From contig DATCBW010000220.1 of the NCBI GenBank assembly GCA_036511615.1, positions 1-57,990 on the forward strand: DNA of 57,990 nucleotides. The letters run 5' to 3'. The first letter of the stretch is position 1; the number at the start of each line of letters is the position of its first letter. The stretch comes from Verrucomicrobiia bacterium (GTDB taxonomy: Bacteria; Verrucomicrobiota; Verrucomicrobiia; Limisphaerales; UBA11358). The notes under the pieces are model-generated. The model searched no databases, was not told where the DNA came from, and was given only the letters and a program-made list of their open reading frames with translations. A program made the position numbers and the translations under genes. Shown here one piece after another: positions 17,041 through 34,689 of this stretch.

Positions 17041-19401
17041 ATGATCGCCCGCGTCAGTCTTGAAATTGCCCTGCGCAAGGAATTTGATTATTCGATTCCT
17101 GCAAGCTTGGCCGGCCAAATTGACGTGGGCAGCCGCGTGCAGGTGCCGTTCGGCCCGCGCAAAGTTCTGGGCGTCGTCACCGCCGTCGCCGAGGAGTCGG
17201 CACACGCCCGGCTCAAACCGATTTTGAAAGTCATCGGCGCGCAAACTTTGGTGACGCCGAAGGTTTTGAAACTCGCGCGTTGGATTGCCGACTACTACTG
17301 CTGCGCGCCGGAGACCGCACTGAAATCCGTCCTGCCCGAAGCCGTCCGCAAGGAAGACGCCGGCTGGCGCGAACGATTGTTTGTCCGCGCCCTGCCGGCC
17401 GGCGGCGAACTTCCCAAGCTGCCCAAACGCCAGCGGGATGTCTGGAACATTGTCGAAGAGCGCCGGGAGATTTTATTGGCGGAACTCGTCGAACTGGCCG
17501 AAACGACCGCCGCCACTGTGCGCAAACTGGAAGATCGCGGCCTGATTGAAATCACCTCGGAAATTTCCGAGCGCGATCCTTATGCGCGTGAAACCATTTT
17601 GCCGTCGCAACCGCTGGTTTTGAATCCCGCGCAAGCCGTCGCGCTCGAAAAAATCAAAGTGGCGATGAATCGCGGTGAAGATGGCCGACACCTCACCCCG
17701 ACCCTCTCCCCATTGCTCGCAGACTCGCAACGCGGAGAGGGAGAAAAACCATCCTCCATCTTCCATCCTCAATCCTCGACTTTTCTCTTGCACGGCGTGA
17801 CCGGCTCCGGCAAAACGGAAATTTATTTGCAAGCGCTGGCGCACGCGCTGGAACAAGGCAAAGGCGCAATCGTCCTCGTGCCGGAAATTTCGCTGACACC
17901 GCAGACCGTCGAGCGGTTCAAGGCACGGTTCAGTTCGGGAAAATTGCAGACGCTCGTCGCGGTTTTGCATTCGCATTTGAGCGCAGGCGAACGGCACGAC
18001 GAATGGCACAAGATTCGCCAAGGCCGCGCGCGCATCGTCATCGGCGCGCGTTCGGCGATTTTTGCGCCGGTCGAACCGCTCGGCCTCATCATCGTGGACG
18101 AGGAACACGAGACGAGTTACAAGCAGGAGGAAGCGCCGCGCTATCATGCGCGCGACGTGGCCATCATGCGCGGGCAGATGGAAAATGCCGTCGTCGTGCT
18201 CGGCTCGGCCACGCCGTCGCTCGAAAGTTTTTACAATTGCAAACGCGGCAAGTTCACTTTGCTCGAATTGCCGGAGCGCGTGGACAATCAAAAAATGCCG
18301 CACGTCCGCGTCGTGGACATGCGGCAGGCGGCGCACAAGGAAAAGGGCGCGCCGCTGTTTTCGCCGCAGCTCAAGGAAGCGATTAACCAGCGACTTGATC
18401 GCGGCGAGCAGACGATTTTGTTTTTGAACCGGCGCGGCTACTCGACTTCGCTGCAATGCCCGAAGTGCGGTTACGTTTGCAATTGCCCGAATTGCAGCCT
18501 CGCGCTCACGTTTCACCGGCAGGAACAAAAACTCGCCTGCCATATCTGCGGCCACGTTGAAAAAGTTCCGTTGGTTTGTCCGAACGAAAAATGCAAAAAT
18601 CCCGCGATCCGTTTTTCCGGCACGGGCACGCAACGCGTCGAGGAGACGCTCGCCAAACTTTTTCCGAAGGCGCGTATCAAACGCATGGACGCCGACACGA
18701 TGAAGCGCAAGGATGATTACCGCAAAGTCCTCGGCGATTTTCGCGCGGGCAAAATTGACATTCTCGTCGGCACGCAGATGATCGCGAAGGGTCTGCATTT
18801 TCCGAACGTCACGCTCGTCGGCATCATCTATGCCGACCTCGCGCTGCATCAGCCGGATTTTCGCGCGGGCGAACGCACCTTTCAGTTGCTTACGCAAGTC
18901 GCCGGTCGCGCCGGGCGCGGCGACGTGGAGGGCGAGGTGTTTGTGCAGGCGTTCGCGCCGTTTCATCCGGCGATCCAATACGCGCGCCGCCACGACTTCA
19001 ACGGTTTTTACGAACAGGAAATCGAATTCCGCGAACAACTGAAATATCCGCCCGTCAGTCGCGTCGCGCTGCTGACACTCAAGGGCCGTAACGAAGAAAA
19101 GGTGAAATTCTCCGCCGAGCATTTAAGGAAAGTTCTTGAGTCCAAAGTCCAAAGTCCAAAGTCCAAAGTTGCTGCGGGCGAAACGACTTTAGACATTGGA
19201 CATTGGCCTTTGGACTTGATAATCGCCGGGCCGGCACCGGCGCCGTTGCTGCGCGCGGAAACTTTTTATCGCTACCAGATCATGCTGCGGACGCGGGCGA
19301 TGAGCGCGTTGAGCCGCGAACTGGCGCGCATCATTCAATCGCTGGCGCTGCCCGAAGACGTCACGCTGGCCGTGGACATTGACCCGGTGAATTTGGGGTA
19401 G
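17041..19401 (+). CDS. priA: Primosomal replication restart helicase PriA
   Basis: Walker [14 protein letters not shown] box (IIVDEEHE), Cys-rich zinc region CPKCGYVCNCPNCSLALTFHRQEQKLACHICGH, GRAGR. Confidence 0.95.
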   Translation: MIARVSLEIALRKEFDYSIPASLAGQIDVGSRVQVPFGPRKVLGVVTAVAEESAHARLKPILKVIGAQTLVTPKVLKLARWIADYYCCAPETALKSVLPEAVRKEDAGWRERLFVRALPAGGELPKLPKRQRDVWNIVEERREILLAELVELAETTAATVRKLEDRGLIEITSEISERDPYARETILPSQPLVLNPAQAVALEKIKVAMNRGEDGRHLTPTLSPLLADSQRGEGEKPSSIFHPQSSTFLLHGVTGSGKTEIYLQALAHALEQGKGAIVLVPEISLTPQTVERFKARFSSGKLQTLVAVLHSHLSAGERHDEWHKIRQGRARIVIGARSAIFAPVEPLGLIIVDEEHETSYKQEEAPRYHARDVAIMRGQMENAVVVLGSATPSLESFYNCKRGKFTLLELPERVDNQKMPHVRVVDMRQAAHKEKGAPLFSPQLKEAINQRLDRGEQTILFLNRRGYSTSLQCPKCGYVCNCPNCSLALTFHRQEQKLACHICGHVEKVPLVCPNEKCKNPAIRFSGTGTQRVEETLAKLFPKARIKRMDADTMKRKDDYRKVLGDFRAGKIDILVGTQMIAKGLHFPNVTLVGIIYADLALHQPDFRAGERTFQLLTQVAGRAGRGDVEGEVFVQAFAPFHPAIQYARRHDFNGFYEQEIEFREQLKYPPVSRVALLTLKGRNEEKVKFSAEHLRKVLESKVQSPKSKVAAGETTLDIGHWPLDLIIAGPAPAPLLRAETFYRYQIMLRTRAMSALSRELARIIQSLALPEDVTLAVDIDPVNLG
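17702..17741. repeat. Hairpin-containing low-complexity insert inside priA
   Basis: ccctctcc (17702-17709) pairs with ggagaggg (17734-17741). Encodes LTPTLSPLLADSQRGEGE just upstream of the Walker A motif. Followed by a catcct-type simple sequence up to about 17780. Confidence 0.7.
19141..19217. repeat. Heptamer-arm hairpin inside the priA coding sequence
   Basis: Left arm (tccaaag)x4, 16-nt loop, right arm (actttag)(acattgg)(acattgg)(cctttgg)actt. About 24 of 28 arm positions are complementary. Read in frame as SKVQSPKSKVAAGETTLDIGHWPLDL. Confidence 0.9.
19336..19399. repeat. priA 3-prime end, native copy of a triplicated segment
   Basis: caatcgctggcgctgcccgaagacgtcacgctggccgtggacattgacccggtgaatttggggt. 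Recurs at 20224-20282 and 25604-25656. Confidence 0.95.
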
Positions 19402-19436
19402 GAGAATGTAAAATCCGGTTGACAAATTCCTTAAAT

Positions 19437-19453
19437 GAATACAAATTGTATTC
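19437..19453. promoter_or_regulatory. Perfect 8-1-8 palindrome abutting the higB start (candidate HigA/HigBA operator)
   Basis: gaatacaa-a-ttgtattc ends 1 nt before the GTG at 19454. TTGACA at 19419-19424 lies upstream. Confidence 0.5.
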
Positions 19454-19762
19454 GTGCGCATCATCAAGGAAAAGTTTCTGGTGGAGATGGGAAGGAAATA
19501 TCCGAAAGCTGCCAGCCACTTGGAAGCGTGGCGCAAAATTGTCAGGTTGACGATGTGGCGAAATTTGGTGGAAGTGCGCCGGATTTATCCTGACACGGAT
19601 TCGGTGAAAGTCCGCAGCGGGCGGCAAGTGCTGGTGTTCAATATGCGGCGAAATGATTACCGGCTGATTGTCGCGGTGCATTTCAACCGCCAGATTGTTT
19701 ATACTTTGCGTTTTTTGACGCACGCGGAATACAGCAAAGATCGCTGGAAATCTGAATTGTAA
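19454..19762 (+). CDS. higB: Type II toxin HigB-family mRNA interferase
   Basis: 102-aa protein with KYPKAASHLEAWRKIV..YRLIVAVHFNRQIVYTLRFLTHAEYSK, the pattern of the HigB_toxin family. Followed by an HTH antitoxin gene. Confidence 0.8.
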   Translation: MRIIKEKFLVEMGRKYPKAASHLEAWRKIVRLTMWRNLVEVRRIYPDTDSVKVRSGRQVLVFNMRRNDYRLIVAVHFNRQIVYTLRFLTHAEYSKDRWKSEL

Positions 19763-19788
19763 ATTACTTCGCAACAAAACAAAAGATT

Positions 19789-20214
19789 ATGAAAACAGCA
19801 ACTCGACTCAACTTTGCAGCCCTGCCAAAAAACTACGCCGGACTGTGCCAGATTCTCACGCCGCGCCCGATCCACGACAAGGTGGATTATGAGAACGTGA
19901 CAGAGATTACTGACGCAATGGCCGGCCACAAATTGACGGCGGACCAAGATGATTACTTTGACCTGCTCTGCCAATTGATTGAGACCTACGAAAAAGAACA
20001 CGCGCAACTGGACGCGCCAAAAGTCACCGGGCTGGAAATGTTGCAGCATCTTTTGGACGCAAATGACATGAGCGCGGCGGATTTGGCGCGATTGCTGAAT
20101 GTTCACCGGACACTTGGTGCGATGATTTTGCGCGGTGAACGGCAACTCACTTTAGCTCACGTTCAAAAGCTGTCCAATCACTTCGGTGTGTCTGCGGATT
20201 TATTTCTGCCGTAG
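19789..20214 (+). CDS. higA: HigA-family HTH antitoxin
   Basis: C-terminal XRE-type HTH (LEMLQHLLDANDMSAADLARLLNVHRTLGAMILRGERQLTLAHVQKLSNHFGV). Located 27 nt after higB. Confidence 0.8.
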   Translation: MKTATRLNFAALPKNYAGLCQILTPRPIHDKVDYENVTEITDAMAGHKLTADQDDYFDLLCQLIETYEKEHAQLDAPKVTGLEMLQHLLDANDMSAADLARLLNVHRTLGAMILRGERQLTLAHVQKLSNHFGVSADLFLP

Positions 20215-20223
20215 AAAACTGGT

Positions 20224-20282
20224 TCGCTGGCTGCCCGAAGACGTCACGCTGGCCGTGGACATTGACCCGGTGAATTTGGGGT
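20224..20282. repeat. Second copy of the priA 3-prime end
   Basis: 52 consecutive nt identical to 19348-19399 (ctgcccgaag...gaatttggggt), plus tcgctgg upstream across a 2-nt gap. Confidence 0.95.
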
Positions 20283-20328
20283 GAAATTAGAAATTGAATT
20301 ATCCCGTTCTTTGAGGCACACTGGAAAT

Positions 20329-20508
20329 GTGAAAGCGACAATTAAGCAACCCGCTAAATCCGAGGCTGAATTGCTGGATCACGCCACGAATAATCTTTTG
20401 CGCGGACTCAAGCGCGATATGCAGAAGAAAGACGGTCGCGTGAACTACGACAAACTTCGCAAAGATGGTTACAGTGACCGTTTGCTGGCCAAGCTGGAAC
20501 AGGCTTGA
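20329..20508 (+). CDS. Conserved 59-aa protein, copy 1 (paralogue of 25703-25882)
   Basis: VKATIKQPAKSEAELLDHATNNLLRGLKRDMQKKDGRVNYDKLRKDGYSDRLLAKLEQA aligns without gaps to copy 2. GTG start inferred from that alignment. Confidence 0.5.
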   Translation: MKATIKQPAKSEAELLDHATNNLLRGLKRDMQKKDGRVNYDKLRKDGYSDRLLAKLEQA

Positions 20509-20511
20509 TTT

Positions 20512-20715
20512 CTACTCATTCTTGCGCAGTCGCATAAATTCCGAAACGGTGATGTCGAGCAATGGCGCGGCTTTGCGTGCCTGATTCATGGCATCCGAAT
20601 AGGCCAATCCTGTGGACATCTGACGCACAATCCGTTCCGTTGTCCAACCGCGCGCCTTGGCCATTTGAATGCTCGCTTTCAACTCAGTGTAACGCAAAAT
20701 GTTTTCTTCGCTCAT
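20512..20715 (-). CDS. Hypothetical 67-aa protein, last gene of the ParB operon
   Basis: MSEENILRYTELKASIQMAKARGWTTERIVRQMS... No motif recognised. ATG at 20715 chosen, 20 nt below the upstream stop. Confidence 0.4.
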   Translation of the reverse strand: MSEENILRYTELKASIQMAKARGWTTERIVRQMSTGLAYSDAMNQARKAAPLLDITVSEFMRLRKNE

Positions 20716-20734
20716 GGCTGTAGGTTTTGGCTCG

Positions 20735-21664
20735 TCAGATATAAATTTCCGCAAATCTTTTCAGTTGAGGTTTTATATCTGCTGGCACAAGTTGGAAAAG
20801 TTTCTCATTTTGCATAATCGGTCGAATAACATTAACCGCGAGTGAAATTTCATGCTTAATTTCTTTTAAGTCCTTTTCTGCATCTTTCAATTCAGCTTCG
20901 CGGAGTTCAACATCTTTAGAAAGCATCTCCATTTCTGATGCGCTAATTTTGGGACGAGAAACAGAAGCTCGTTTTTGTTTTTTTCTTTTTAACTTCATCG
21001 CAACTCTTTCCGGCTTGCAATAGAAGTCTGGATTTTGATCTGGGTGATATTTCTTGCGAATGTCTTGATGAAGTTTTCCGCCTGATAGTTTTTTGAAATC
21101 AGCTTTCTTGTCACGCCAGATGCGCTTCTGTCCTGTGTCCGTCATGCCATCGAACACGCGAGCAGAATGTTCAGTTATTTGACCGCTATCAACCGCCTTC
21201 TGGACTTCAGGAATAAGTTTGCCCACTACCAACCAATTATGGATGGTTGTCGCGTCAACACCGAGATATTCGCCAACTTCCTTATTGTTCATTTTGAAGT
21301 TTGCCATTAGCGTTTTTATCAAAGAAGCGCGTTGACTCGGGAATAAATCTTGCCGGTGTTCATCCAAAATGAAACGGATGCGATCACGATATTCTTCCGG
21401 TGGAACTCCTTTGGGCAAATCATCAATGACACACGGCACTTGGAGATGTTTCAAATATTTTGCAACCTCTAATCGTCGGAAGCCATCAATAAGCACAAAC
21501 TTTCCGTCATTTAATTTTGAAACAACCAAAGGTTGTTGAATTCCAGTCCGTTCAATCGAGTGTCGCAATTTGTCATCTTCGACAACATCGCCTGAACGCC
21601 GGTATTTATCCGGCACTTGTATTTGAGTGATTTTGATCGATTCTGCTTGGCTAACATTTTTCAT
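20735..21664 (-). CDS. ParB/Srx-fold + HTH protein (ParB-like 2)
   Basis: N-domain QPLVVSKLNDGKFVLIDGFRRLEVAKYL, then HTH MNNKEVGEYLGVDATTIHNWL, then a K/E-rich coiled tail. About 40% G+C. Confidence 0.75.
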   Translation of the reverse strand: MKNVSQAESIKITQIQVPDKYRRSGDVVEDDKLRHSIERTGIQQPLVVSKLNDGKFVLIDGFRRLEVAKYLKHLQVPCVIDDLPKGVPPEEYRDRIRFILDEHRQDLFPSQRASLIKTLMANFKMNNKEVGEYLGVDATTIHNWLVVGKLIPEVQKAVDSGQITEHSARVFDGMTDTGQKRIWRDKKADFKKLSGGKLHQDIRKKYHPDQNPDFYCKPERVAMKLKRKKQKRASVSRPKISASEMEMLSKDVELREAELKDAEKDLKEIKHEISLAVNVIRPIMQNEKLFQLVPADIKPQLKRFAEIYI

Positions 21665-22545
21665 CTTGCCTCCATTGTTTGAATTACTTGTGCGAATTCA
21701 GAGAAATCAACGCCTTCTTTTTTCAAAGCTAGTTTCATTTCAGGCATTACGAGCAATTGCTTAAGATTGCTCGGTCCCAACGCCCAATGAAGCCGTCTTA
21801 ATTTCAACAAAGTGCGCGCTTCGCTCAATGCTTTGTCGAGATCACGAAGTGAAGATCGAAGCGTATTCTTTGAAAGATTTCCTGTTTGCCTCAAATCCTT
21901 TGTCTTTTTTACGAGAGCTCTAATTTGGTCAGAACCTAAATTTTCCTCTTTCAATACTTCCACGACAATTTCTTGGTCTTTCGCGTCGAGAGATGCCAAT
22001 GCTTCGGCATCATTCATGGAAAGTTTCTGAATTTCTCCTTCTTTCATTAACTTTGAAGAGGCATGCCCTAAAGTCCGCAGATATTTATAAACGTGTCCCG
22101 TAGTGACGAAATATTTTTTCTTGATCTCTTCAACTCCGATACCGCGTTCGATGTCCTGTTTAACTAATTGAGCACGCTCAAACCAACTCAATCGTTTTCT
22201 CATCACGTTTTCTGCCAAAAACCGGCCAACAATTTCTTCCTCTGGAACATCAATTATCATTGCAGGGATTTTAGGCAGTTCAAGTTCACGAAATGCCTGT
22301 AGACGTCCCTGCCCGCATATTAATTCGTAATTGTAAAGCCCTCCATCATTTCGCCGGCGATCCGAATGAGACCACTTTGTAATGTCTCGGACCTGAATCG
22401 GCTGCTTCAAGCCGACAGCGCTGATGCTTTCTTTCAAGCGCGCGTATGCACCTTGGGCGCGACTGCGCCTGACAAAATATTTTATCTCATCAATCTTAAT
22501 TTCAACAACTTCAACTTTAGTTGATTCATTAGTGTTATGGTTCAT
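21661..22545 (-). CDS. ParB/Srx-fold + HTH protein (ParB-like 1)
   Basis: QPIQVRD..YELICGQGRLQAFRELELPKIPAMIID, ParB-like box RFLAENVMRKRLSWFERAQL, HTH-like VEEIKKKYFVTTGHVYKYLR. ATGA overlap with the next gene. Confidence 0.75.
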   Translation of the reverse strand: MNHNTNESTKVEVVEIKIDEIKYFVRRSRAQGAYARLKESISAVGLKQPIQVRDITKWSHSDRRRNDGGLYNYELICGQGRLQAFRELELPKIPAMIIDVPEEEIVGRFLAENVMRKRLSWFERAQLVKQDIERGIGVEEIKKKYFVTTGHVYKYLRTLGHASSKLMKEGEIQKLSMNDAEALASLDAKDQEIVVEVLKEENLGSDQIRALVKKTKDLRQTGNLSKNTLRSSLRDLDKALSEARTLLKLRRLHWALGPSNLKQLLVMPEMKLALKKEGVDFSEFAQVIQTMEAR

Positions 22546-22565
22546 ATTTGTCCTTTCGCTAAAAA

Positions 22566-23018
22566 CTATCCGTTTTCACGAAGCAAGTCAAGCGCCCTTT
22601 CAAACAACTGACTGACCCGCTGCTTGCTTACACCGTAACTTTTTGCAATTTGAGAAAATGACTCGCGTTCACCATCAAAACCCAAATGTCTGATTACAAC
22701 ATTTCTTTCCCGATTGGGAAGAATCGTTAAATCCTTTGCAAGTTTCCGAGACAATTCTTGATTGCATATGTCAGAAAATGGCGTTTGTTCATTTGTAAAA
22801 GCATCTTCGTTTTCGCGCACAACAAAATCACCGTTGGCTTTATACACAAATAGACTTTCAATAATCGCGCGCATAAATTTCCCATTGATCATGCGTTCGC
22901 AAAAACAATTACCTGCTTGAGACGAGGCCAAGTTTTCCGGTAAGTTCTGCATAATCTTTTTCGGGTCTTGTCGGCAAAGCCATAAGCGACCTTGGTTGCC
23001 AGTTCTTCCGATTGGCAC
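22566..23018 (-). CDS. Sigma-70 region-4-like HTH protein (C-terminal half of a possibly split sigma factor)
   Basis: LPNRERNVVIRHLGFDGERESFSQIAKSYGVSKQRVSQLFERALDLLR is a region 4.2-type HTH. The N-terminal about 40 aa of the ORF overlap 22889-23185 in another frame. Confidence 0.55.
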   Translation of the reverse strand: MPIGRTGNQGRLWLCRQDPKKIMQNLPENLASSQAGNCFCERMINGKFMRAIIESLFVYKANGDFVVRENEDAFTNEQTPFSDICNQELSRKLAKDLTILPNRERNVVIRHLGFDGERESFSQIAKSYGVSKQRVSQLFERALDLLRENG

Positions 23019-23185
23019 GCGCGCAATTTTTTGAGGAAGATTTTATCTTGAAACGCTTCCACGATTAAATCCTGCCGAATGTCATCAGTGCTTCTCTGGC
23101 AGACTGCACCAATCCTGCGATACGCTTGCACAGCAACCTTGTTCGCTATAGCGATTAGCAAACTTTCAGTCTCGTTGTTTGTCAT
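22889..23185 (-). CDS. Sigma-70 region-2-like protein (N-terminal half of a possibly split sigma factor)
   Basis: MTNNETESLLIAIANKVAVQAYRRIG...DDIRQDLIVEAFQ resembles ECF region 2.1/2.2. The frame ends at 22889 inside the other ORF. Confidence 0.45.
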   Translation of the reverse strand: MTNNETESLLIAIANKVAVQAYRRIGAVCQRSTDDIRQDLIVEAFQDKIFLKKLRACQSEELATKVAYGFADKTRKRLCRTYRKTWPRLKQVIVFANA

Positions 23186-23365
23186 ATATTTCTGTTTCCA
23201 TTTAATACAGCCCATTTAATCACATGCCGTCAAGAGGTTCATGATTCATTTATCATCACTCATTTGAGCTTACAAGGTTTTAAGTTTTGTTCAAATCTAT
23301 TTTGTCATGTTTCATTCGATTAAAAACTACCTGAAAATGAACGCTTTATGCCGTTCTTCTATTTT

Positions 23366-23614
23366 TCATTTGCCGATGGCGCGAACGCTGTGTTTTATTT
23401 TTTTAATTCCACGTTGCCACAAATCAAAATAATACAGCGCGACGACGACGAGGGAGTGGCCGGTTTTTTCGTCGGCGACGAGTTTCGGGATTTCCGCGAC
23501 GGGCACGAGGTGCGTGATCAAATCTTCGCCGCTGTCGAATTCCACGCCGTGTTGCAGGCGGCAGTTTTCAACCAGCACGGTGCAGGTGACGTTGCTCAAG
23601 ATCGCGGGATTGGA
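23366..23614 (-). pseudogene. 3-prime fragment of a NUDIX hydrolase gene (duplicate of 28101-28316)
   Basis: 23399-23614 aligns base for base with 28101-28316 at roughly 90% identity by eye. Encodes only ...VLVENCRLQHGVEFDSGEDLITHLVPVAEIPKLVADEKTGHSLVVVALYYFDLWQRGIKK. The NUDIX box is missing. Confidence 0.85.
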
Positions 23615-23652
23615 ATGGCCGCTTCAACGTTTTGACAATTCAGCTTTTCGAG

Positions 23653-25482
23653 TTACAGCGATTTGACTTTTTTCACAATTGCGGGGGCGTCAATGCCGAA
23701 CGCGGCCATCAGTTCCGCCGCGTGGCCGGAGCGCGGCAGGCCGTTGACGGCGAGCTTGTGGACTTTGATGCCTTCGCTGCTCAATTCGCCGGCAACCGCG
23801 TCACCGAGTCCGCCTTCAGTGTAATGATCTTCAACGGTGATGACGGTGTTGTTCGTCTTTTGCGCGGCAGCGAGAATTTCCTTTTTGCCGAGCGGTTTGA
23901 TGCTGTAGGCGTCAATGACCGTGATGTTGATGCCTTCGACCTTCAACGTGTCGGCTGCTTTCAAGGCTTCAAACAACGTGACGCCCGCCGCGACGACGGT
24001 GACTTTGTCGCCCGTGCGCAGAACTTTTGCGCCGCCGATGGGGAACTGTTCGTCGTTGCCGTAAATGACCGGCGTTTTCGGACGCGAGGTGCGCAGGAAG
24101 CAGAGGCCTTTGTGCTGCGCCATTTGTTCCAGCAATTTTTCGGTGGCCACGGCTTCGGCGGGATACAGCACCGTGCTGCCGACGATGGCGCGCATCAGCG
24201 CAATGTCTTCCAGCGCCATCTGCGACGGGCCGTCTTCGCCGATGCTGATGCCGACGTGCGAGCCGACGAGCTTGAGGTTCGACTGCGAAATGCCCGCGAC
24301 GCGAATCTGGTCGGCGGCGCGGGTGAAGAACGTCGCGAACGTCGAGGCGAACGGCACATGACCGCGCGTGGCAAAACCGACCGAGACGGCGACGAGATTT
24401 TGTTCCGCGATGAAACATTCAATGGAGCGTTCGGGAAATTTCTTGAAAAATTTTTCCGCGTAGGTGGAATTTTTCGTGTCGCCGTCCAGCGCATTGATGC
24501 GCGGATCGGCATCGCCAAGGCGGACGAGCGCTGTGCCGTAGGCTTCGCGGGTGGCGATCTGGTCGCCGAGCTTGTAGCTGATGGCTGCGTAGCCTGCGGG
24601 TGCGGTGAGATTTGGCGCAGGCAATGGCGTCGGTGCAGGAATCGCCACGCCGAGGCCGGACTTGGCGCTGGGCTGAAGTTCGGCGATGGCCTGCGCGGCT
24701 TCTTCCTTGTTCAACGGCTTGCCGTGCCAGCCGTCTTTGTCCTGCACAAAAGAAATGCCCGCGCCCTTGTAGGTCTTGGCGATGATGGCGAGCGGCTGGT
24801 CGTTCAGGCCGACGCCGCTCAACACTTCGACAATTTCCTCGATGTCATGGCCGTCAATTTCCTCGACGCGCCAGCCGAACGCCTTGAAACGGTCGCGATA
24901 GACATTGATGTCATGGCCGAACGCCGTGGCCTGGCTCTGGCCGAGGCGGTTCGCGTCCACAATGGCGATGAGATTGTTCAGCTTGTAAATGCCCGCGATG
25001 TTCGCGGCTTCCCAGACCGCGCCTTCGGCGATTTCGCCGTCGCCCATCAAAACGTAGGTGTTGAAATCCAGCTTGTCCTGGCGCGCGGCGAGCGCCATTC
25101 CGGCACCGATGCCGAGGCCCTGGCCGAGCGAACCGGTCGCCACATCGGCAAACGCCAGGCGCGGCGTGGGATGACCTTCCAGTTCGCTGGTGAACTGGCG
25201 GAGCGTCAGCAGTTCGGGAATCGGCACAAAACCATTTTCCGCCCACGCGGCGTAAAGCAGCGGTGCGGCGTGGCCTTTGGAGAGAATGAACCGGTCGTTG
25301 TTGTAAAAATGCGGATTCTTCGCGTCATATTTCATGTGGCCGAAGAACAGCGTCGCCACAATGTCCGCCGCCGAGCAGCACGAAGTCGGATGTCCGCTGC
25401 CCGCCGCCGTCGTCGCCTCGATGGAATGAATGCGCAACTGGTTGGCGATGCCTTTCAAAAGTTCAATGTCAGTATCAATCAT
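23653..25482 (-). CDS. tkt: Transketolase
   Basis: AAGSGHPTS, GDGEIAEG, GEDGPSQMALEDIA. Full three-domain length. ATG at 25482 (MIDTDIELLKG). Confidence 0.95.
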   Translation of the reverse strand: MIDTDIELLKGIANQLRIHSIEATTAAGSGHPTSCCSAADIVATLFFGHMKYDAKNPHFYNNDRFILSKGHAAPLLYAAWAENGFVPIPELLTLRQFTSELEGHPTPRLAFADVATGSLGQGLGIGAGMALAARQDKLDFNTYVLMGDGEIAEGAVWEAANIAGIYKLNNLIAIVDANRLGQSQATAFGHDINVYRDRFKAFGWRVEEIDGHDIEEIVEVLSGVGLNDQPLAIIAKTYKGAGISFVQDKDGWHGKPLNKEEAAQAIAELQPSAKSGLGVAIPAPTPLPAPNLTAPAGYAAISYKLGDQIATREAYGTALVRLGDADPRINALDGDTKNSTYAEKFFKKFPERSIECFIAEQNLVAVSVGFATRGHVPFASTFATFFTRAADQIRVAGISQSNLKLVGSHVGISIGEDGPSQMALEDIALMRAIVGSTVLYPAEAVATEKLLEQMAQHKGLCFLRTSRPKTPVIYGNDEQFPIGGAKVLRTGDKVTVVAAGVTLFEALKAADTLKVEGINITVIDAYSIKPLGKKEILAAAQKTNNTVITVEDHYTEGGLGDAVAGELSSEGIKVHKLAVNGLPRSGHAAELMAAFGIDAPAIVKKVKSL

Positions 25483-25603
25483 AAATTGTAAGAGCGGAAA
25501 GAGTAGCCGACGGACGACGAAAGCCAAGAATGAAAATTGGAAAATCGCGAATCCCGTCATCGCAGACGACGGATAAACCTTGTTCTGTCCGGCGCGAACG
25601 ACT

Positions 25604-25656
25604 CAATCGCTGGCGCTGCCCGAAGGCGTCACGCATTGATCCGGTGAATTTGGGGT
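25604..25656. repeat. Third, diverged copy of the priA 3-prime end
   Basis: caatcgctggcgctgcccgaaggcgtcacgc-attgatccggtgaatttggggt. First 22 nt are identical to 19336-19357. There is an 11-nt gap and 2 mismatches relative to the native copy. Confidence 0.9.
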
Positions 25657-25702
25657 GAGTTTTAGGATTGAATTCCGCACGATTTCATTTTATTGCAAAG
25701 AC

Positions 25703-25882
25703 ATGAAAATTGCCGCTGCAAAACGAGAAAAGAGCGAAGCCCAATTGCTGGATCAAGCGACTGACAATCTTTTGCACGCCGTCAAACGGGAAATGATCAA
25801 GAAACAAGGCCGCGTGGATTATGGCAAGCTGCGCAAAGATGGTTACAGCGACCGTATTCTTACAAAGTTGAAAGAAGCCTGA
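25703..25882 (+). CDS. Conserved 59-aa protein, copy 2
   Basis: MKIAAAKREKSEAQLLDQATDNLLHAVKREMIKKQGRVDYGKLRKDGYSDRILTKLKEA. Same length and register as 20329-20508. Confidence 0.5.
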   Translation: MKIAAAKREKSEAQLLDQATDNLLHAVKREMIKKQGRVDYGKLRKDGYSDRILTKLKEA

Positions 25883-25913
25883 AATTTAACGAGGTTGTTC
25901 TTGCAATTATGTT

Positions 25914-25928
25914 GACGATGTGTCACAA
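25914..25928. promoter_or_regulatory. 15-nt motif gacgatgtgtcacaa upstream of the methyltransferase gene (candidate C-box, or cassette boundary repeat)
   Basis: Identical 15-mer recurs at 28086-28100 upstream of the C gene. Contains the palindromic core tgtg-t-caca. Confidence 0.5.
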
Positions 25929-25940
25929 GTTATCCGGCAG

Positions 25941-27107
25941 ATGTTAAACGGAACAACAACTCAAAACGTGCTTCTGGAAGTGCCGGTTGCTTATCGCGCC
26001 CGTCAGAAACGACCAAAGCTCGGTCGTTACGAAAGCATCCGTAAAAAATTTGAGAATGACACTTCCGACGCGGCAAAAGTGTTTGTTGAGTTCAATGAAA
26101 AGGTTTCCATCCCGAACGGCTTTCAGTTTATTGATTTATTTTGCGGCGCGGGCGGAATGACTTGCGGCTTGACTCGCGCGGGCTACACGGCGCGAGCGGC
26201 GGTGGAGATTGTGGACGTTCCCTGCGATACGCATCACCGCAATTTTCCAAAATGCAAACTGCATCGCGGTTCAATTCAGGATTTCAATCTAAAATCCTTG
26301 TCGGATGAATTCGGGCAAATTCATTTGGTCGCTGGTGGGCCGCCGTGTCAGGGATTTTCCGTGGCAGGATTCCGAAATCCAGAAGACGAGCGTAACCAGT
26401 TGTTCCGCGAATTCATGCGCGTCGTCAAGACCGTCAAGCCGTGGTATGTCATCATGGAAAATGTGCCGGGCATTTTGACGTTGGCGGGCGGGGATTTTTA
26501 TCGTGCCATCATCGAAGCATTCGGCGAAGCAGGCTATCCGACAGTTTCAGTTGCTGTTTTGGAGTCGGCAAATTACGGCGTGCCGCAATTTCGTCCGCGA
26601 GCGATTTTCATCGCAAACCGTTTTGGCCGCAGCAATCCGTTTCCACTGCCGCAATTGACGTCGGGAAATTATCGCCCGATTGAAAGCGCGCTGCACGGTT
26701 TGTCTGCAAACGAGCCTTCGGCGGAAATTAATCACGAGTGGACGAAGCACTCAAAGGAAATGGAAAAACGTCTGGCCAAAGTTCCGCCCGGCGGCTCGCT
26801 TTACGAAACATTTTTTGACGCTTGGAAACGCCAGTATCCCGGATTGCCGAGCATGACGATCAAGGAAAATCACGGCGGCACGCACATTCATCCGCATTTG
26901 AACCGCGTTTTGTCCGCGCGTGAAATGGCGCGGCTGCAAACTTTTCCTGACGATTTCATTTTTTGCGGGACAATGAAAAAAGCCATGTGGCAGATTGGCA
27001 ACGCCGTTCCGCCAAGGTTGGCGGAAGTCATTGGAAAAACTTTGCTGCCTTCATTGCAAGCGTTGGCAGACAAACAGCCGGACCCGTTTGCGTCGCTTTC
27101 TAACTAG
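25941..27107 (+). CDS. DNA (cytosine-5)-methyltransferase
   Basis: Motif I FIDLFCGAGGMTCGL, IV GGPPCQGFS, VI IMENVPGIL, VIII QFRPRAIFIA, X GNAVPPRL. ATG at 25941 preferred to GTG at 25920. Confidence 0.92.
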   Translation: MLNGTTTQNVLLEVPVAYRARQKRPKLGRYESIRKKFENDTSDAAKVFVEFNEKVSIPNGFQFIDLFCGAGGMTCGLTRAGYTARAAVEIVDVPCDTHHRNFPKCKLHRGSIQDFNLKSLSDEFGQIHLVAGGPPCQGFSVAGFRNPEDERNQLFREFMRVVKTVKPWYVIMENVPGILTLAGGDFYRAIIEAFGEAGYPTVSVAVLESANYGVPQFRPRAIFIANRFGRSNPFPLPQLTSGNYRPIESALHGLSANEPSAEINHEWTKHSKEMEKRLAKVPPGGSLYETFFDAWKRQYPGLPSMTIKENHGGTHIHPHLNRVLSAREMARLQTFPDDFIFCGTMKKAMWQIGNAVPPRLAEVIGKTLLPSLQALADKQPDPFASLSN

Positions 27108-27803
27108 CGGTTTTTGGAACAGAAAGTTTGAGGTTCAACGCCTCGCGCCAATTTGCGAAGTCATACCAGCCGCAACCAACGCAGCCTTTTTCCGCTTCGA
27201 CTCCAATCGGCGGAATATTTTTCGGCCAGTCTTCCTTGCCGTGGTAGAAAAACTCAATTCCGAAAGGCATTCCGCGTTTGCCATTTTTGAAACAATTTTC
27301 ACACGCACAGCTTTTGAGCAGATTGTGGTTGCCGCCTGCGTCAAATTTGAGCAGTTGAAATTTTTGTTCGATTTCAGCTTCCGAAATCTCCGACGAATGT
27401 TTGGTTTCCGTCGTTCCCCAACGAATCATTGGAAAACGATGGTCAACAATCAATTCGTGCGATGGGTGCTCGCGTTGTTCAATGACGTTCGCGTATCCAA
27501 AATGGGCGAGAATTTTCTTTTTCAAAGCTGCTGAAATTCCCGCCGGGGCGTTTGAGATTTGAAATCTCCCGTCCACCTGTCCCATCGCGTCTTGCGTTTG
27601 CACTGTGCGCAATGATCCGTCTTCGATTCGATTTTCAGGCCGGAACGTGCGCTCGTGCCGCGCTGCAATCCTTGGATTCCGCCGCCACCGGCAAGCTGTC
27701 CGCTTGGAATTCGTTTGTATTCGTGCGAGCGGCAATGCCATTTGGTGTCCTGCAAGACGGCCAGAACTTTCGACTGCAAACTTCCCTTCTTTGGCTTGTT
27801 CAT
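27100..27803 (-). pseudogene. HNH-like restriction endonuclease candidate, reading frame interrupted
   Basis: N-part MNKPKKGSLQSKVLAVLQDTKWHCRSHEY...CAQCKRKTRWDRWTGDFKSQ (frame of 27522-27803). C-part ...ILAHFGYANVIEQREHPSHELIVDHRFPMIRWG..GNHNLLKSCACENC (frame of 27100-27885). Total span is 704 nt, so it is 1 nt short of being in frame. Confidence 0.55.
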
Positions 27804-28048
27804 CGGCTTTTCCCTTTCGCCTTTGCTTCCAAGCCGCGCAACAATTCTTCGGTCGTGATGCCAAACCCTTTTGCGACTTTGACAATCGCGGTCAGCGACG
27901 GATTGCGGACGCCACGTTCAAGCCCGGAAATGTAAGTCCGATCCAAGTCGGCGCGTTCCGCGAATTCTTCCTGTGAAATGCCAAGCGAATTGCGCCGTTC
28001 GGCAATAAGTTTGCCAAAACTTTCGAGAGTTAGTTTTCGCTCGGACAC
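27800..28048 (-). CDS. XRE-family HTH controller (C) protein of the R-M system
   Basis: RRNSLGISQEEFAERADLDRTYISGLERGVRNPSLTAIVKVAKGFGI. 82 aa. Its stop overlaps the endonuclease ATG by 4 nt, the classic C-R operon arrangement. Confidence 0.75.
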   Translation of the reverse strand: MSERKLTLESFGKLIAERRNSLGISQEEFAERADLDRTYISGLERGVRNPSLTAIVKVAKGFGITTEELLRGLEAKAKGKSR

Positions 28049-28072
28049 GCCACCAGTTAAAAGGCACGTTGC

Positions 28073-28100
28073 CGATGTGTCTATGGACGATGTGTCACAA
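28073..28100. promoter_or_regulatory. Motif pair cgatgtgtc / gacgatgtgtcacaa upstream of the C gene
   Basis: cgatgtgtc (28073-28081), a 4-nt spacer, then gacgatgtgtcacaa (28086-28100). The second element overlaps the NUDIX stop codon at 28095-28097. Confidence 0.5.
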
Positions 28101-28652
28101 CTTTTTAATTCCCCGCTGCCACAAATCGAAATGATACAGCGCGACGACGACGAGGGAGTGGCCGATTTTTTCGTCGGCGACGAGTTTCGGAATTTCCGCG
28201 ACGGGCACGAGGCGCGTGATCAAATCTTCGCCGCTGTCGAATTCCACGCCGTGTTGCAGGCGGCAGTTTTCAATCAGCACAGTGTAAGTGACGTTGCTCA
28301 GAATGGCGGGGTTGGACCAGATTTTTCCGAGCAGGCGCGCGTTTTCGCCTTCGTAGCCGGTTTCCTCGCGCAATTCGCGCACGGCGGTCGCCACTGGGTC
28401 AGTTTCATTCGCGTCCATCATGCCGCCGGGAATTTCCAGTTCCACCGTGCCGGAGCCGCAGCGGTATTGCTGAACCATCACCAGTTTCTGGTCGGGCGTG
28501 ACGGCGACGACGTTGACCCAGTTGACGCTGTCGAGGACGAAGAAATCGTGCTCCTTGCCGGTGCGCGGATTGACGCAGGTGTCGGAGCGGATTTTGAAGA
28601 TGCGAAAATCTCCGGCGGGTTTGGAACTGATTTTTTTCCAAGGTTTAATCAT
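28095..28652 (-). CDS. NUDIX hydrolase (ADP-ribose pyrophosphatase-like)
   Basis: NUDIX box GGMMDANETDPVATAVRELREETGY. 185 aa. Confidence 0.88.
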   Translation of the reverse strand: MIKPWKKISSKPAGDFRIFKIRSDTCVNPRTGKEHDFFVLDSVNWVNVVAVTPDQKLVMVQQYRCGSGTVELEIPGGMMDANETDPVATAVRELREETGYEGENARLLGKIWSNPAILSNVTYTVLIENCRLQHGVEFDSGEDLITRLVPVAEIPKLVADEKIGHSLVVVALYHFDLWQRGIKKL

Positions 28653-32731: not shown

Positions 32732-33676
32732 ATGGCGACGCGCACGGAAAAATTTACCGTTGAACAATCGCTTCCCGGCGTGCGGCTCGACAAATTCCTG
32801 TGCGAAAAATTTCCCGCCGCCTCGCGCGGTGCCTTGCAACGGCTCATCGCGGAAGGACACATCCGCGTCAATGGCCAGCCCACCAAGCCCACGCACCAAC
32901 CGCGCGCCGGGGAACAGATTGAAGTCCATTGGCCGGAGGCGAAACCCGCCGAAGCGCAGCCGGAAAAAATCCCGCTCGACATTTTGTTCGAGGACGAATC
33001 GCTGCTCGTCGTCAACAAACCCGCCGGCCTCGTTGTCCATCCCGCTGCCGGACACGAGGAACACACGCTCGTCAACGCGCTGCTGCATCATTGCCGAGGC
33101 TCGTTGAGCGGCATCGGCGGCGTGGCGCGGCCGGGCATCGTCCACCGGCTCGACAAGGAAACCAGCGGCTGCCTCGTCGTCGCGAAAAATGACGAGACGC
33201 ACCTCGCGCTGTCGGAACAGTTTGCCTCGCGCGAAGTCAAAAAGATTTATCACGCGCTCGTTTGCGGCGAACCCGCGCGCGAATCCGGCGAAATCCATGC
33301 CGCCATCGCGCGGCATCCCACGCACCGCAAACGCATGGCCGTGCGCGACGACAGTTCCGACCGCGCCGCGCACACGAGCTACAAAATTCTCGAACGGCTT
33401 TACGCAGCGACCTTGATGGAGGCGCAGATTCACACCGGGCGCACGCATCAAGTCCGCGTGCATTTTCAATTCATCGGTCATCCGCTCGTGGGCGACGACA
33501 CCTACGGCGCGCGGCAAAACGCCCGCGTGAAAGAACTGACCAACTACGCCGCCCCGCGCGTGATGCTGCACGCGAAAAACCTTTCCTTCATCCATCCGCG
33601 CACACAAAAGCCGGTGAAGTTTGAAGCGCCGCTGCCGGACGATTTCAAACAGGCGTTGACATTGTTGCGCGCTTGA
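32732..33676 (+). CDS. rluD: 23S rRNA pseudouridine synthase, RluD/RluA family
   Basis: S4 domain (RLDKFLCEKF), catalytic HRLDKETSGCLVVAK, HQVRVHF. Confidence 0.9.
   Translation: MATRTEKFTVEQSLPGVRLDKFLCEKFPAASRGALQRLIAEGHIRVNGQPTKPTHQPRAGEQIEVHWPEAKPAEAQPEKIPLDILFEDESLLVVNKPAGLVVHPAAGHEEHTLVNALLHHCRGSLSGIGGVARPGIVHRLDKETSGCLVVAKNDETHLALSEQFASREVKKIYHALVCGEPARESGEIHAAIARHPTHRKRMAVRDDSSDRAAHTSYKILERLYAATLMEAQIHTGRTHQVRVHFQFIGHPLVGDDTYGARQNARVKELTNYAAPRVMLHAKNLSFIHPRTQKPVKFEAPLPDDFKQALTLLRA
33619..33671. repeat. rluD 3-prime end, native copy of a duplicated 53-nt segment
   Basis: gtttgaagcgccgctgccggacgatttcaaacaggcgttgacattgttgcgcg. Recurs at 34315-34367 with about 7 mismatches. Confidence 0.9.
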
Positions 33677-33706
33677 CCCGTCATCCCGTCGTGTTACAGT
33701 TCGTGT

Positions 33707-34649: not shown

Positions 34650-34689
34650 TTCGGTGCGTCCCGCACCGAACGGCAGGCGGAACGCCTGC
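34650..34689. repeat. Intergenic double hairpin
   Basis: ttcggtgcg-tcc-cgcaccgaa (9-bp stem) followed by gcaggcg-gaa-cgcctgc (7-bp stem). Confidence 0.75.

Follow-up and report, generated by a model that had tools for sequence, protein, structure and literature searches.

Probable recombination at the priA–NUDIX interval

The interval between priA and a NUDIX hydrolase gene, both core genes, is best explained, with somewhat better than even probability, as a recombination hotspot in a Pedosphaeraceae-like group of Verrucomicrobia. The gap between the two genes probably took up DNA from related lineages repeatedly, each uptake leaving a displaced 3′-end scrap of a flanking gene, and the repeats that bracket the inserted genes are on balance better read as scars than as recognition sites. 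The hotspot is a clear case of known genome plasticity and not a new mobile element. The window, i.e., the whole stretch of DNA analysed, comprises 57,990 nt of the forward strand of contig DATCBW010000220.1 (assembly GCA_036511615.1) from a Verrucomicrobiia bacterium (Limisphaerales; UBA11358).

Organization of the locus

The left anchor is priA (17041–19401, + strand; 786 aa, Pfam PriA domains), and the right anchor is the NUDIX hydrolase gene (28095–28652, − strand; 185 aa). The repeats of both gene ends that had been described in the first-pass annotation were all recovered by blastn, close to the positions reported there. The 3′ end of priA itself (A1, 19323–19401, +; stop codon TAG) is the repeated unit. 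Its final 53 nt (19347–19399) recur exactly at 20230–20282, inside a displaced remnant (A2, 20224–20284, +; 53/53 identical to A1) that keeps a TGA stop codon; weaker similarity extends from 20224 across a 2-nt indel (61 nt, 96.7%, E = 7e-21). A third, older remnant (A3, 25589–25658, +; aligned from 25589/25591 to 25656/25658) is 78% identical to A1 over 77 columns, with an 11-nt gap due to a deletion in A3 (E = 1e-11). The presence, divergence, and gap of this copy had been noted correctly; its start, placed at 25604, lies about 13 nt earlier. The NUDIX 3′ end (28087–28321) is repeated at 23385–23619 (N1, −) with 93% identity over 215 nt (E = 1e-87) and 91% over 230 nt. N1 has no start codon, spans the last ~74 NUDIX codons and 14 nt beyond the stop codon, and breaks after GGAATGG.

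The genes between the anchors were identified with HMM support for PriA, the HigB toxin and HTH antitoxin, two ParB-N proteins, sigma-70 region 4, transketolase, C5 methylase, type II REase, C (control) protein, and NUDIX. A HigBA cassette (19454–20214; PD-Lambda-2 A/B-like according to PADLOC) sits immediately downstream of the priA stop codon and consists of a HigB-like toxin (19454–19762, +; Pfam HigB_toxin) and an HTH antitoxin (19789–20214, +; Pfam HTH_3). A2 follows and runs without a break into the ancestral leader of a 59-aa gene with a GTG start (59a, 20329–20508, +). Next come a 67-aa gene (20512–20715, −), which is convergent with the 59-aa gene and conserved as its partner, and cargo 1 (20735–23215, −). 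The latter has a low GC3 and encodes two ParB-N domain proteins (20735–21664 and 21661–22545, −; Pfam, and ParB-like in PHROGs) with distant matches of 27–34% to plasmid ParB/RepB, a sigma-70 region-4 HTH protein (22566–23018, −; Pfam), and a 98/108-aa ORF (22889–23215, −). N1, the transketolase gene tkt (23653–25482, −), and A3 separate this set from a second, homeologous 59-aa gene with an ATG start (59b, 25703–25882, +) and from cargo 2, a type II restriction-modification (RM) system on mixed strands (25920–28048; Pfam, PADLOC). Cargo 2 comprises a C5 methylase (25920/25941–27107, +), a restriction enzyme (27100–27741/27885, −), and a C control protein (27800–28048, −). GC3 was 0.36–0.39 in the ParB/sigma genes, 0.50–0.56 in the RM genes, 0.75 in tkt, and about 0.7 in core genes.

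Mixed ancestry of the interval

The window does hold two homeologous copies of one hotspot. The 59a and 59b genes are 74% identical at the nucleotide level and 63% at the amino acid level, with dS of ~1.4; 59a is 88–90% identical to lineage X, its protein being 98% identical to P0004 of L092 and L093, whereas 59b is 82% identical to lineage Y (L097–L103), which together with P0082 provides its nearest relatives. As these identities show, the two copies come from diverged lineages.

Both anchors are mosaic. Left of about position 17,750, priA is 65–85% identical to lineage X (L092, L096, L003, L002), and right of it 87–98%; in 100-nt bins the identity rises from ~76 to ~93% at about 17.75 kb, where the ranking of relatives also shifts. 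In the NUDIX gene, the 3′ ~200 nt (N2, 28087 to ~28300) are 96–97% identical to lineage X and the 5′ part only 83%; N1 is 95–96% identical to the same lineage. Over 10.6 kb, from ~17.75 to 28.3 kb, the nearest relatives differ from those of the flanks, and both breakpoints lie inside the anchor genes.

Comparison with related genomes

In seven loci of close relatives (L092, L093, L096, L097, L098, L101, and L102), a canonical order was observed: priA and the 59-aa gene on one strand, followed by genes for 66/67 aa and ~164 aa and the NUDIX gene on the other. The 59-aa gene had been regarded as part of a mobile bracket. Because close relatives carry it beside priA, it is a resident of the interval and not cargo; with the 66/67-aa gene, it is a normal neighbour of priA in this subclade. 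The accretion pattern itself proved real: priA and NUDIX are convergent in relatives, and the gap between them varies from 20 nt to 7.6 kb across 80 representative genomes. Empty sites were also found, since HigBA is lacking in L085, L092, L096, and L132. The RM module of cargo 2 occurs in L132 too, there after an intact priA and a 59-aa gene.

Extra partial priA ends were present in 11 contigs, representing about eight distinct loci (L041, L115, L117/L118, L121, L125, L127, L133/L135/L147, and L148), in addition to the window and its near-duplicate contig (L001/L082). The outer edge of these remnants is always at the stop codon, and the inner edge varies from model position 25 to 113 of 150. 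Likewise, all NUDIX remnants (in the window, L115, L132, L011, and L109) begin at the stop codon and end at positions 48–223. L133, L135, and L147 combine an intact priA end of the lineage Y type with a remnant of the X type; the two are about 70% identical. The order in these three loci is priA, 59, 66, remnant, p145, and in L117/L118 it is priA, p145, remnant, 59, 66; these reciprocal orders indicate that the residents of one side can serve as the cargo of the other.

The first-pass annotation had suggested tandem accretion at an att-like site. In such a scheme, the last ~40 nt of priA would be recognized by a recombinase encoded elsewhere, and integrase-less cassettes (HigBA, p145, and a 300-nt insert in L115) would be stacked there in an integron-like or IMEX-like manner. 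All inserts start at most 2 nt from the priA stop codon, the right-hand ~38 nt are kept in all remnants, the newest insert is always nearest priA, and the joints of HigBA are the same in the window, L127, and L115, which are three different contexts. The 100% identity of A1 and A2 over 53 nt is likewise compatible with a genuine target duplication or an att core. However, neither the intervals scanned nor the other scanned parts of the 58-kb window yielded a recombinase gene; the search for integrases and transposases was equally negative in the ~7.6-kb interval of L038, in the 6.5 kb on the left side of tkt in L115, and among the ORFs that follow the NUDIX remnants in L132 and L011. The locus has no tRNA and no Rfam match, and the priA-end repeat folds no better than shuffled sequence (z of 0 to +1). 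Moreover, the remnants vary in length from 38 to 125 nt, some differ from the intact end down to ~70% identity, being of different lineages and sharing runs of at most 14 nt, and the resident 59/66 genes act as cargo in other genomes. The same scars on the NUDIX side would need a second site, and among the 80 representative priA loci only L041 has repeats. Site-specific accretion is therefore a rather improbable account of the locus.

Soundness of the assembly

A plain assembly chimera is unlikely: most junctions recur in other assemblies, which excludes simple misassembly. Four other contigs, from JGI, ENA, and Logan samples, match the window at 100% across the junctions from tkt through A3 and 59b to the RM genes. 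L115, a 46.7-kb contig from a lineage about 9% diverged, has the same joints between NUDIX remnant, tkt, and priA remnant, the last without the 11-nt deletion, as well as three priA remnants. To the left of its NUDIX remnant lie housekeeping-like genes (GH57, DUF4912, and others), and priA is out of view; thus, only the window and L001 confirm the left half of the two-copy arrangement. The weakest link is that from cargo 1 through N1 to tkt, which was seen only in these same two contigs.

This link would be the seam of a partial chimera, in which two co-occurring strains, one with priA, HigBA, 59a, cargo 1, and NUDIX, and one L115-like with NUDIX remnant, tkt, A3, 59b, RM, and NUDIX, were joined through their near-identical NUDIX 3′ ends. 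A window-like strain and the L115 strain are both present in sample JGI 3300006638, several short contigs terminate inside N1 or N2, and unrelated sequence is entered 28 nt before the tip in L083 and 87 nt before it in L088. Nevertheless, the identical join occurs in two assemblies that differ at 16 sites (L001 against the window over 18223–28280, with all mismatches within priA), and the longest exact repeats within the contig, 53 and 60 nt, are shorter than both k = 141 and the read length. In addition, cargo 1 followed by an intact NUDIX gene was found in no contig, the tip of L083 is not NUDIX-like, and the remaining oddities are all reproduced in the diverged L115 contig. We consider such a chimera very unlikely.

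Proposed mechanism

The layout probably arose by successive recombinations anchored in priA or NUDIX homology with an illegitimate join at the far end, i.e., by homology-facilitated illegitimate recombination (HFIR) or 3′-end displacement; its molecular steps, the order of events, and the entry route of tkt are our inference, whereas the anatomy, its recurrence in relatives, the mixed lineages, and the lack of recombinase genes in the scanned stretches were observed. DNA of a related lineage would pair homologously inside priA or, in the mirror case, inside NUDIX. The donor's own 3′ gene end and its downstream content would be copied in, and the non-homologous far end would be joined illegitimately within the gene end of the recipient. 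The last 38–125 nt of the recipient's priA, or 48–223 nt of its NUDIX gene, would thereby be displaced outward as an orphan remnant that remains attached to the recipient's former downstream genes. At least three such events may be stacked in the window. An old pair of events would have produced the joint of N1, tkt, and A3, which holds the second islet copy (59b and RM) beside the first (59a, the 67-aa gene, and the ParB/sigma cargo). In a later event, HigBA would have been placed immediately behind the priA stop codon, and A2 would have arisen. The remnants would supply portable homology, so cassettes could then be shuffled or deleted by ordinary homologous recombination.

Among the three scenarios offered in the first-pass annotation, integration of homeologous DNA comes closest to this mechanism, but its Campbell-type form, with the crossover within the repeat, is disfavoured. 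A donor fragment with the priA end, 59a, the 67-aa gene, cargo 1, and the NUDIX 3′ end, ligated to a tkt fragment and closed into a circle, would have entered by a single crossover in a short shared segment, and HigBA by the same route as a ~0.9-kb circle. The cyclic order of priA end, cargo, NUDIX end, and tkt matches the observed topology, the two islet copies are homeologous, and the ParB-type genes of cargo 1 hint at an episomal past. Yet the crossover homology would be only 38–125 nt in many remnant cases, no replication gene was found, and no circular form or second site was seen. Since the repeats are short (38–77 nt) and donor-type sequence extends 1.7 kb into priA, outside the range of any such circle, one-ended, homology-anchored recombination is favoured over a Campbell crossover, which we regard as unlikely for both parts.

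The third scenario, a segmental tandem duplication of the islet from the priA end to the NUDIX end and capture of tkt where the copies meet, would require that the copies were later overwritten by alleles and cargo of other lineages through homologous recombination. The layout does equal 1.x tandem units plus one novel joint, the joint is old and common to L115, and the locus recombines heavily with other lineages. Still, this history needs 2 kb of filler at the joint and, given the 59a/59b divergence, complete later replacement of one copy, and it leaves the many single remnants in relatives without a duplicated islet unexplained. It appears quite improbable.

Some observations count against homology-anchored recombination with an illegitimate far end, among them the exact match of A1 and A2 mentioned above. 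The NUDIX gene switches lineage at about 28.3 kb, within ~50 nt of where the N1 break would fall in it, which the model treats as a coincidence. The model also gives no account of a complete, promoter-bearing tkt between the two oldest joints. The gene is intact, has a housekeeping composition, and encodes 609 aa rather than the 635 aa of the longer ORF. It is 91% identical to its counterpart in the second lineage, L115, and dN/dS of 0.11 (dS 0.28) between them indicates that it is under purifying selection. In its leader (25483–25588), ~53 nt are shared with native loci, and ~55 nt of unassigned sequence continue to the A3 joint. The N1–tkt joint (23620–23652) consists of ~11–23 nt of unassigned filler and the first ~10–30 nt downstream of tkt, and alignment with native tkt loci (L104 and L106) and L115 showed that the native terminator is absent there. 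None of the native neighbours (u213, DA1-like, and DUF179) occurs in the window, and tkt adjoins priA or NUDIX in no relative examined. The gene is an ectopic 1.97-kb piece, a single-gene insertion between two illegitimate joints. The puzzle of a stranded tkt is answered only in part, as an old and selected ectopic insertion common to L115.

Comparison with known systems

Integrase-borne islands at tRNA or protein-gene att sites, including tandem accretions, share with this locus a gene end duplicated as a direct repeat flanking the insert, a target gene that stays intact, and inserts that can stack at one site. Unlike them, the priA–NUDIX interval has no integrase, tRNA, or constant element, its repeats vary in length, and resident genes act as cargo.

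Insertions with long target duplications at their flanks and without mobility genes have been described by Furuta et al. (2010; PMC2853133) and, as cited there, by Nobusato et al. (2000). As far as that class is outlined by Furuta, Abe and Kobayashi, the direct repeats exceed 30 bp, overlap a gene 3′ end, and match one copy in a genome whose site is empty, which A1–HigBA–A2 fits, and the insert differs from the host in composition. However, the class was established on RM systems whose repeats are nearly identical, whereas the clean case here is a TA cassette. The other repeats are 70–93% identical and come from different lineages, so they are not duplications of a single target.

HFIR has been obtained experimentally in transformable bacteria (de Vries and Wackernagel, 2002; Prudhomme et al., 2002; Meier and Wackernagel, 2003; all as cited in PMC5361080) and in E. 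coli conjugation (PMC3240628). As summarized in these sources, foreign DNA is integrated beside one homologous anchor with one illegitimate end, as proposed here; those were laboratory events with mapped microhomologies, whereas the present case consists of end products in uncultured organisms.

HFIR was also the explanation proposed by Kirchberger et al. (2017; PMC5361080) for orphan 3′ ends stacked at T6SS and Rhs loci; they cite Jackson et al. (2009) for 3′-end (C-terminal) displacement at Rhs/T6SS effector-immunity loci. Those arrays resemble this locus in several ways: downstream of an intact gene, orphan 3′ fragments are stacked in the orientation of that gene, with the most recent module next to it; the fragments derive from other lineages; no integrase takes part; and completed arrays spread by ordinary homologous recombination. 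Unlike the polymorphic toxins of those arrays, the anchors here are housekeeping genes (priA and NUDIX); scars lie on both sides of a convergent gene pair, no immunity-gene logic favours retention, and the cargo includes ParB genes and the housekeeping gene tkt as well as a TA pair and an RM system.

Organization of the priA–NUDIX interval

The window has a G+C content of 55%. In the gene call, priA (17041–19401, + strand) precedes a HigB toxin gene and then an HTH antitoxin gene (19454–20214; PF09907, 2.7e-21, and PF01381, 6.7e-7, in Pfam), which is the composition of a type II toxin–antitoxin system with a HigB/RelE-fold toxin (HigBA). These are followed by a 59-aa gene (59a, 20329–20508), a 67-aa gene (20512–20715, − strand) and a first cargo block of two ParB-N proteins, a sigma-70 region-4 protein and a small ORF (20735–23215, −). 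The transketolase gene tkt (23653–25482, −) encodes 609 aa; a 635-aa ORF was rejected as an upstream extension. A second 59-aa gene (59b, 25703–25882) and a second cargo block (25920–28048) lie between tkt and the NUDIX hydrolase gene (28095–28652, −). The genes of this block, grouped together, are predicted to encode a C5 methylase (PF00145, 1e-61), a restriction enzyme (PADLOC REase_II, 2.8e-58) and an HTH control protein (PADLOC Control_protein, 2.2e-17), that is, a type II restriction–modification (RM) system with a C protein.

The first-pass annotation had described repeated gene ends around both blocks, and the alignments bore this out. The final 53 nt of priA (whose own 3′ end is A1) recurred exactly at 20230–20282, within the remnant A2 (20224–20284), and a third copy, A3 (25589–25658), had 78% identity with an 11-nt gap. 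The 3′ end of the intact NUDIX gene (N2, 28087–~28300) recurred at 23385–23619 (N1) with 91–93% identity, and the two 59-aa genes were homologous (74% identity in nucleotides, 63% in protein). The blastn E-values of these bracketing repeats ranged from 1e-11 to 1e-87.

The 59-aa and 67-aa proteins had no match in Pfam, PHROGs or PADLOC and no meaningful sequence match in PDB. Against phage and plasmid collections, the ParB cargo reached at best 27–34% identity to ParB/RepB proteins, and a syntenic element was absent. Promoter and terminator counts in a scan of 19.3–28.8 kb did not exceed the shuffled expectation.

Support for the assembly

An ENA MEGAHIT contig of 10,058 nt (L001) corresponds to window positions 18223–28280 and covered every internal junction; its 16 mismatches all fell in priA, at 18318–18451. 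The order tkt–A3–59b–methylase–restriction enzyme–C protein(–NUDIX) was 100% identical in four further contigs (two JGI samples, one ENA sample and one Logan run), and that from HigA through A2, 59a, the 67-aa gene and the two ParB genes to sigma was spanned by two other contigs. The longest exact repeats within the contig, of 53 and 60 nt, were shorter than both k=141 and the read length. The weak point is the link from the first cargo block through N1 to tkt, the exact form of which occurred only in the window and L001. An exact look-up of a spurious 95-aa ORF spanning the N1 joint, made in search of more contigs, matched only L082. In two short contigs, the sequence was unrelated over the last 28 nt (L083) and the last 87 nt (L088). 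We regard a chimera of strains at N1 as highly unlikely.

The interval in related genomes

A scan with PriA yielded 80 loci, nearly all from Verrucomicrobiota MAGs (Limisphaerales, Pedosphaera and “subdivision 3”). The upstream order DUF6600, RuvC, RuvA, DUF374, priA was conserved, as were the downstream genes NUDIX, cyclophilins, NYN, signal peptidase II and others. The convergent priA and NUDIX genes were separated by 20 nt (L037) to 7.6 kb (L038), the latter interval containing G6PD and RNase II genes. In the closest genomes, priA was followed by a 44-nt spacer, the 59-aa gene (+), a 66/67-aa gene (−), a gene of ~164 aa (−) and NUDIX (−). Since the 59-aa gene directly follows priA there, it is a resident of the interval. 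The repeats of the first-pass annotation stand, and its interpretation stands in part: with this gene order, the 59-aa gene does not belong to a mobile bracket.

The same annotation had called for empty sites among relatives, and these were found for HigBA. In L085, L092, L096 and L132, priA continued straight into the 59a leader, with sequence identical to that after A2 in the window; these HigBA-free priA–59a junctions therefore represent empty sites.

The 59-aa protein had 791 database relatives, all unnamed. Even at E<1, none of the 80 GTDB representative loci had a homologue behind priA; linkage of the two genes is confined to a subclade. A second scan, of metagenomes with the 59-aa alignment as query, gave 80 more loci. 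In at least 54 metagenome loci, neither priA nor a remnant of it immediately preceded the 59-aa gene of the 59/66 pair. Among L109–L188 the pair formed a convergent unit (e.g., L139, L150, L154, L168 and L177), and the neighbours of the priA-less pair differed in the five loci examined (PrpD, arabinofuranosidase, T2SS ATPase, aminotransferase). The 59-aa/66-aa pair may be a small module in its own right, either mobile or addiction-like.

Recurrent gene-end remnants

Searched with blastn-short, the 80 representative loci showed no priA-end repeat; a profile built for nhmmer from the final 150 nt of priA later gave one, L041. With the profile, further partial priA ends were detected in L115 (three copies), L117/L118, L121, L125, L127, L133/L135/L147 and L148. 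The right edge of the priA remnants was always the stop codon, and the left edge lay at model positions 25–113. The NUDIX remnants in the window, L115, L132, L011 and L109 likewise started at the stop codon and stopped at positions 48–223. The nhmmer maps of both gene ends, together with pairwise alignments, gave the arrangement of a displacement array: the anchor gene is intact, and behind it lie orphan 3′ fragments in the same orientation, each with the gene end as its outer edge.

The inserts between copies of the priA end measured 168–911 nt and contained HigBA, a CxxCxxCC-domain gene (p145), a 300-nt stretch or the 59/66 pair. The order was priA, p145, remnant, 59, 66 in L117/L118 and priA, 59, 66, remnant, p145 in L133/L135/L147, so that the cargo and resident roles of p145 and the 59/66 pair were reversed between them. 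In the latter three loci, the intact priA end was of the type of lineage Y (L097–L103) and the remnant of that of lineage X (L092/L093/L096/L003/L002/L094), with ~70% identity and a longest common run of 14 nt. Orphan and intact ends of different lineages were also found in the window, in A3 versus A1. HigBA had identical joints in the window, L127 and L115, beside different remnants, as would be expected if remnants act as homology for later exchange or deletion.

Several further observations concern these loci. A first impression that 59b and the methylase formed a module at a foreign site, based on the closest 59b relative (P0082; L107, L108), was dropped; these loci are better read as a p145-type insertion with a priA remnant ahead of the 59-aa gene. 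In L121 (1–112), an inverted partial copy of the priA-end remnant precedes the remnant, forming a snap-back palindrome with ~45-nt arms, a rearrangement of another type at this site. In L118 (5180–5600), a ~20-nt unit (CTGGCTAAAC.../CTGGCTATTC...) is repeated in tandem about 20 times at the start of the insert that separates priA from p145. The restriction enzyme gene was split into 2–3 tblastn pieces in L115 (11401–12178) and L132 (11391–12172), the methylase and C genes being intact despite the broken R gene; the R gene appears to be decaying in these relatives and is intact in the window.

Mosaic ancestry of the anchor genes

The identity of the window to lineage X was 75–82% up to about position 17,667, rose to 92–93% in priA (17,760–19,124) and reached 96–98% at the priA end. 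It was 88–90% over A2–59a–67-aa gene, 95–96% in N1 and 96–97% in the first ~200 nt of N2, and fell to 83% in the 5′ part of NUDIX and 77% downstream of it. The 59b gene had 82% identity to lineage Y. In the 5′ part of priA other lineages were nearer than X, which makes this a case of phylogenetic incongruence and not of uneven conservation. A donor-type tract thus reaches into the anchor genes: the identity switches at ~17.75 kb in priA, where the ranking of the relatives changes, and at ~28.3 kb in NUDIX. Therefore, the block of ~17.75–28.3 kb differs in history from its flanks, and both of its breakpoints fall inside the anchor genes.

Ectopic transketolase gene

A JGI contig of 46.7 kb (L115, Ga0075522_10000142) carries the genes GH57, DUF4912, two unknown genes, a NUDIX remnant (93 nt), tkt and a priA remnant, followed by HigBA, a priA remnant, 300 nt, a priA remnant, a 59b-like gene, M, R, C, the intact NUDIX gene and the conserved downstream genes. 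Its NUDIX-remnant–tkt and tkt–priA-remnant joints matched those of the window with ~91% identity, filler included, and it lacked the 11-nt deletion of A3. This joint of tkt is old. For tkt, comparison of the window with L115 gave a dN/dS of 0.11 at a dS of 0.28; therefore, the ectopic gene was kept functional.

A tkt leader of ~53 nt was conserved, the native terminator was missing, and the joints held 11–55 nt of unassigned filler. In relatives, tkt has u213 upstream and DA1-like/DUF179 genes downstream, and the homologue P0123 lies in an ordinary native context; u213, DA1-like, DUF179 and G6PD genes were absent from the window. Repeats at the ends of tkt, inverted or direct, would have suggested transposition, but the matches there did not rise above chance level. 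The first joint of NUDIX end, tkt and priA end could have arisen by two successive one-ended events, by filler capture or by tandem duplication with capture. The genes left of tkt in L115 had weak homologues downstream of priA in L032, in a different orientation. In one relative (L106, 1769–5143), a tyrosine integrase gene and a rolling-circle Rep gene (REP_ORF2-G2P) lie two genes upstream of the native tkt, which points to an integrated element beside the native site.

Mechanism and comparison with known systems

The first-pass annotation had proposed a search for a recombinase tied to the priA-end repeats. Pfam searches of all ORFs of 19.4–28.1 kb, of a selection of the ORFs that flank them in the window, and of the ORFs scanned in L038, L115, L132 and L011 detected no PF00589 integrase, resolvase or transposase domain. 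An integrase-borne island flanked by att sites would have a tyrosine or serine recombinase gene within it or next to it, which the scanned ORFs lacked. No tRNA, tmRNA or Rfam family was found at the locus. An integron was rejected: no intI or other integrase was found in the scanned ORFs, the priA-end repeat folded no better than shuffled sequence, and the repeats are copies of coding sequence.

The last ~40 nt of priA and, symmetrically, the NUDIX end might instead be a site dedicated to insertion, at which a host function or a recombinase with its gene elsewhere would act. Regarding a constant core, A1/A2 were identical at 53/53 positions, A1/A3 had 78% identity across the 11-nt gap, and pairs of the L133 type had ~70%; regarding constant ends, HigBA kept the same joints in its three loci and the other inserts did not. 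We consider a dedicated site improbable. If it existed, Pedosphaeraceae would carry integron-like stacks of small cassettes without an integrase (HigBA, p145, the 59/66 pair and the 300-nt insert), and the gene-end copies would be element-borne att arms, not scars.

We favour a one-ended, homology-anchored model because of the fixed outer edge and variable inner edge of the remnants, their mixed lineages, the reciprocal cargo and resident roles, the donor tract in the anchor and the lack of a detected recombinase. The steps, which we infer to be those of homology-facilitated illegitimate recombination (HFIR), would be as follows. Incoming related DNA would be anchored by homology within priA or NUDIX, and the donor gene end would be installed together with donor downstream DNA. 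The far end would then be joined illegitimately inside the recipient's gene end, which would persist as a remnant. A Campbell crossover of a circularised fragment would give the same topology as HFIR; however, the crossover would be limited to 38–125 nt, and the 1.7-kb donor tract would be left without explanation.

An HFIR model has been proposed for the orphan 3′ gene ends of Rhs and T6SS loci (PMC5361080), and it is the one fitted to this locus. The “insertion with long target duplication” (PMC2853133) overlaps with the one-ended homology-anchored model. Like the insertions of Furuta (2010), which have direct repeats of >30 bp versus one copy in the empty site, A1/A2 correspond to a single priA end in L085, L092, L096 and L132. 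Unlike those insertions, in which an insert of <20 kb without mobility genes holds R and M, the cleanly bracketed insert here is HigBA (0.81 kb); the RM module belongs to the older, homeologous copy and lies outside the clean A1/A2 bracket. Recombination scars of this class are known, and the locus is a well-documented case of them in nature; in searchable papers they had not been noted before in this phylum.

The record of non-homologous gene gain without a transposase or integrase still comes mostly from HFIR experiments in the laboratory and from a few toxin loci. The uncultured soil and peat Verrucomicrobia provide a natural series of empty sites, single scars and scars stacked on either side of two convergent genes, including reciprocal donor/recipient cases and a retained homeologous duplicate of a whole islet. 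Such events could fix cargo of the defence type (TA, RM) and even tkt, a housekeeping gene under selection, and the scars may later serve as portable homology for further shuffling. Repeats resembling att sites can thus arise without site-specific recombination, and the locus is a practical warning for island finding and MAG curation.

Other features of the window

A palindrome of ~75 nt, made of AAGTCC-like hexamer repeats, lies in frame within priA (19145–19219), its arms (19145–19169 and 19193–19217) being 88% complementary. This bin aligned poorly with L092 and L096, whose PriA is 15–16 aa shorter; the palindrome was present in L003 and L002, and a similar sequence was intergenic in L097 (14768–14839, both strands matching). 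It resembles a small element of the REP or MITE kind that is tolerated inside the priA coding region.

A low-GC3 island (0.29–0.36 against a backbone of ~0.7) at 9162–11365 encodes a 140-aa protein without matches and a 592-aa STAND/NACHT-like NTPase (weak AAA_22/NACHT matches) and may be a horizontally acquired defence gene pair. Direct repeats at 33619–33669/34315–34365 (51 nt, 90%) and 34706–34776/35365–35435 (71 nt, 98.6%), with a tandem-like repeat of ~84 nt at 34883–35084, surround ORFs at 34749–36287 without Pfam matches. These repeats (33619–35435) had no tRNA or Rfam match, and the element at ~34315–34395 was conserved in L003, L017, L097 and L115. Near the right end, a 112-nt direct repeat (55256–55367/56358–56469, 95.5%) and a 244-nt repeat (56130–56371/56649–56892, 68%) may represent a duplicated gene segment. 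Finally, a 65-nt inverted repeat (2749–2813/4825–4888, 89%) encloses ~2 kb and overlaps the ends of ORFs 1833–3893 (−) and 4360–5886 (+).
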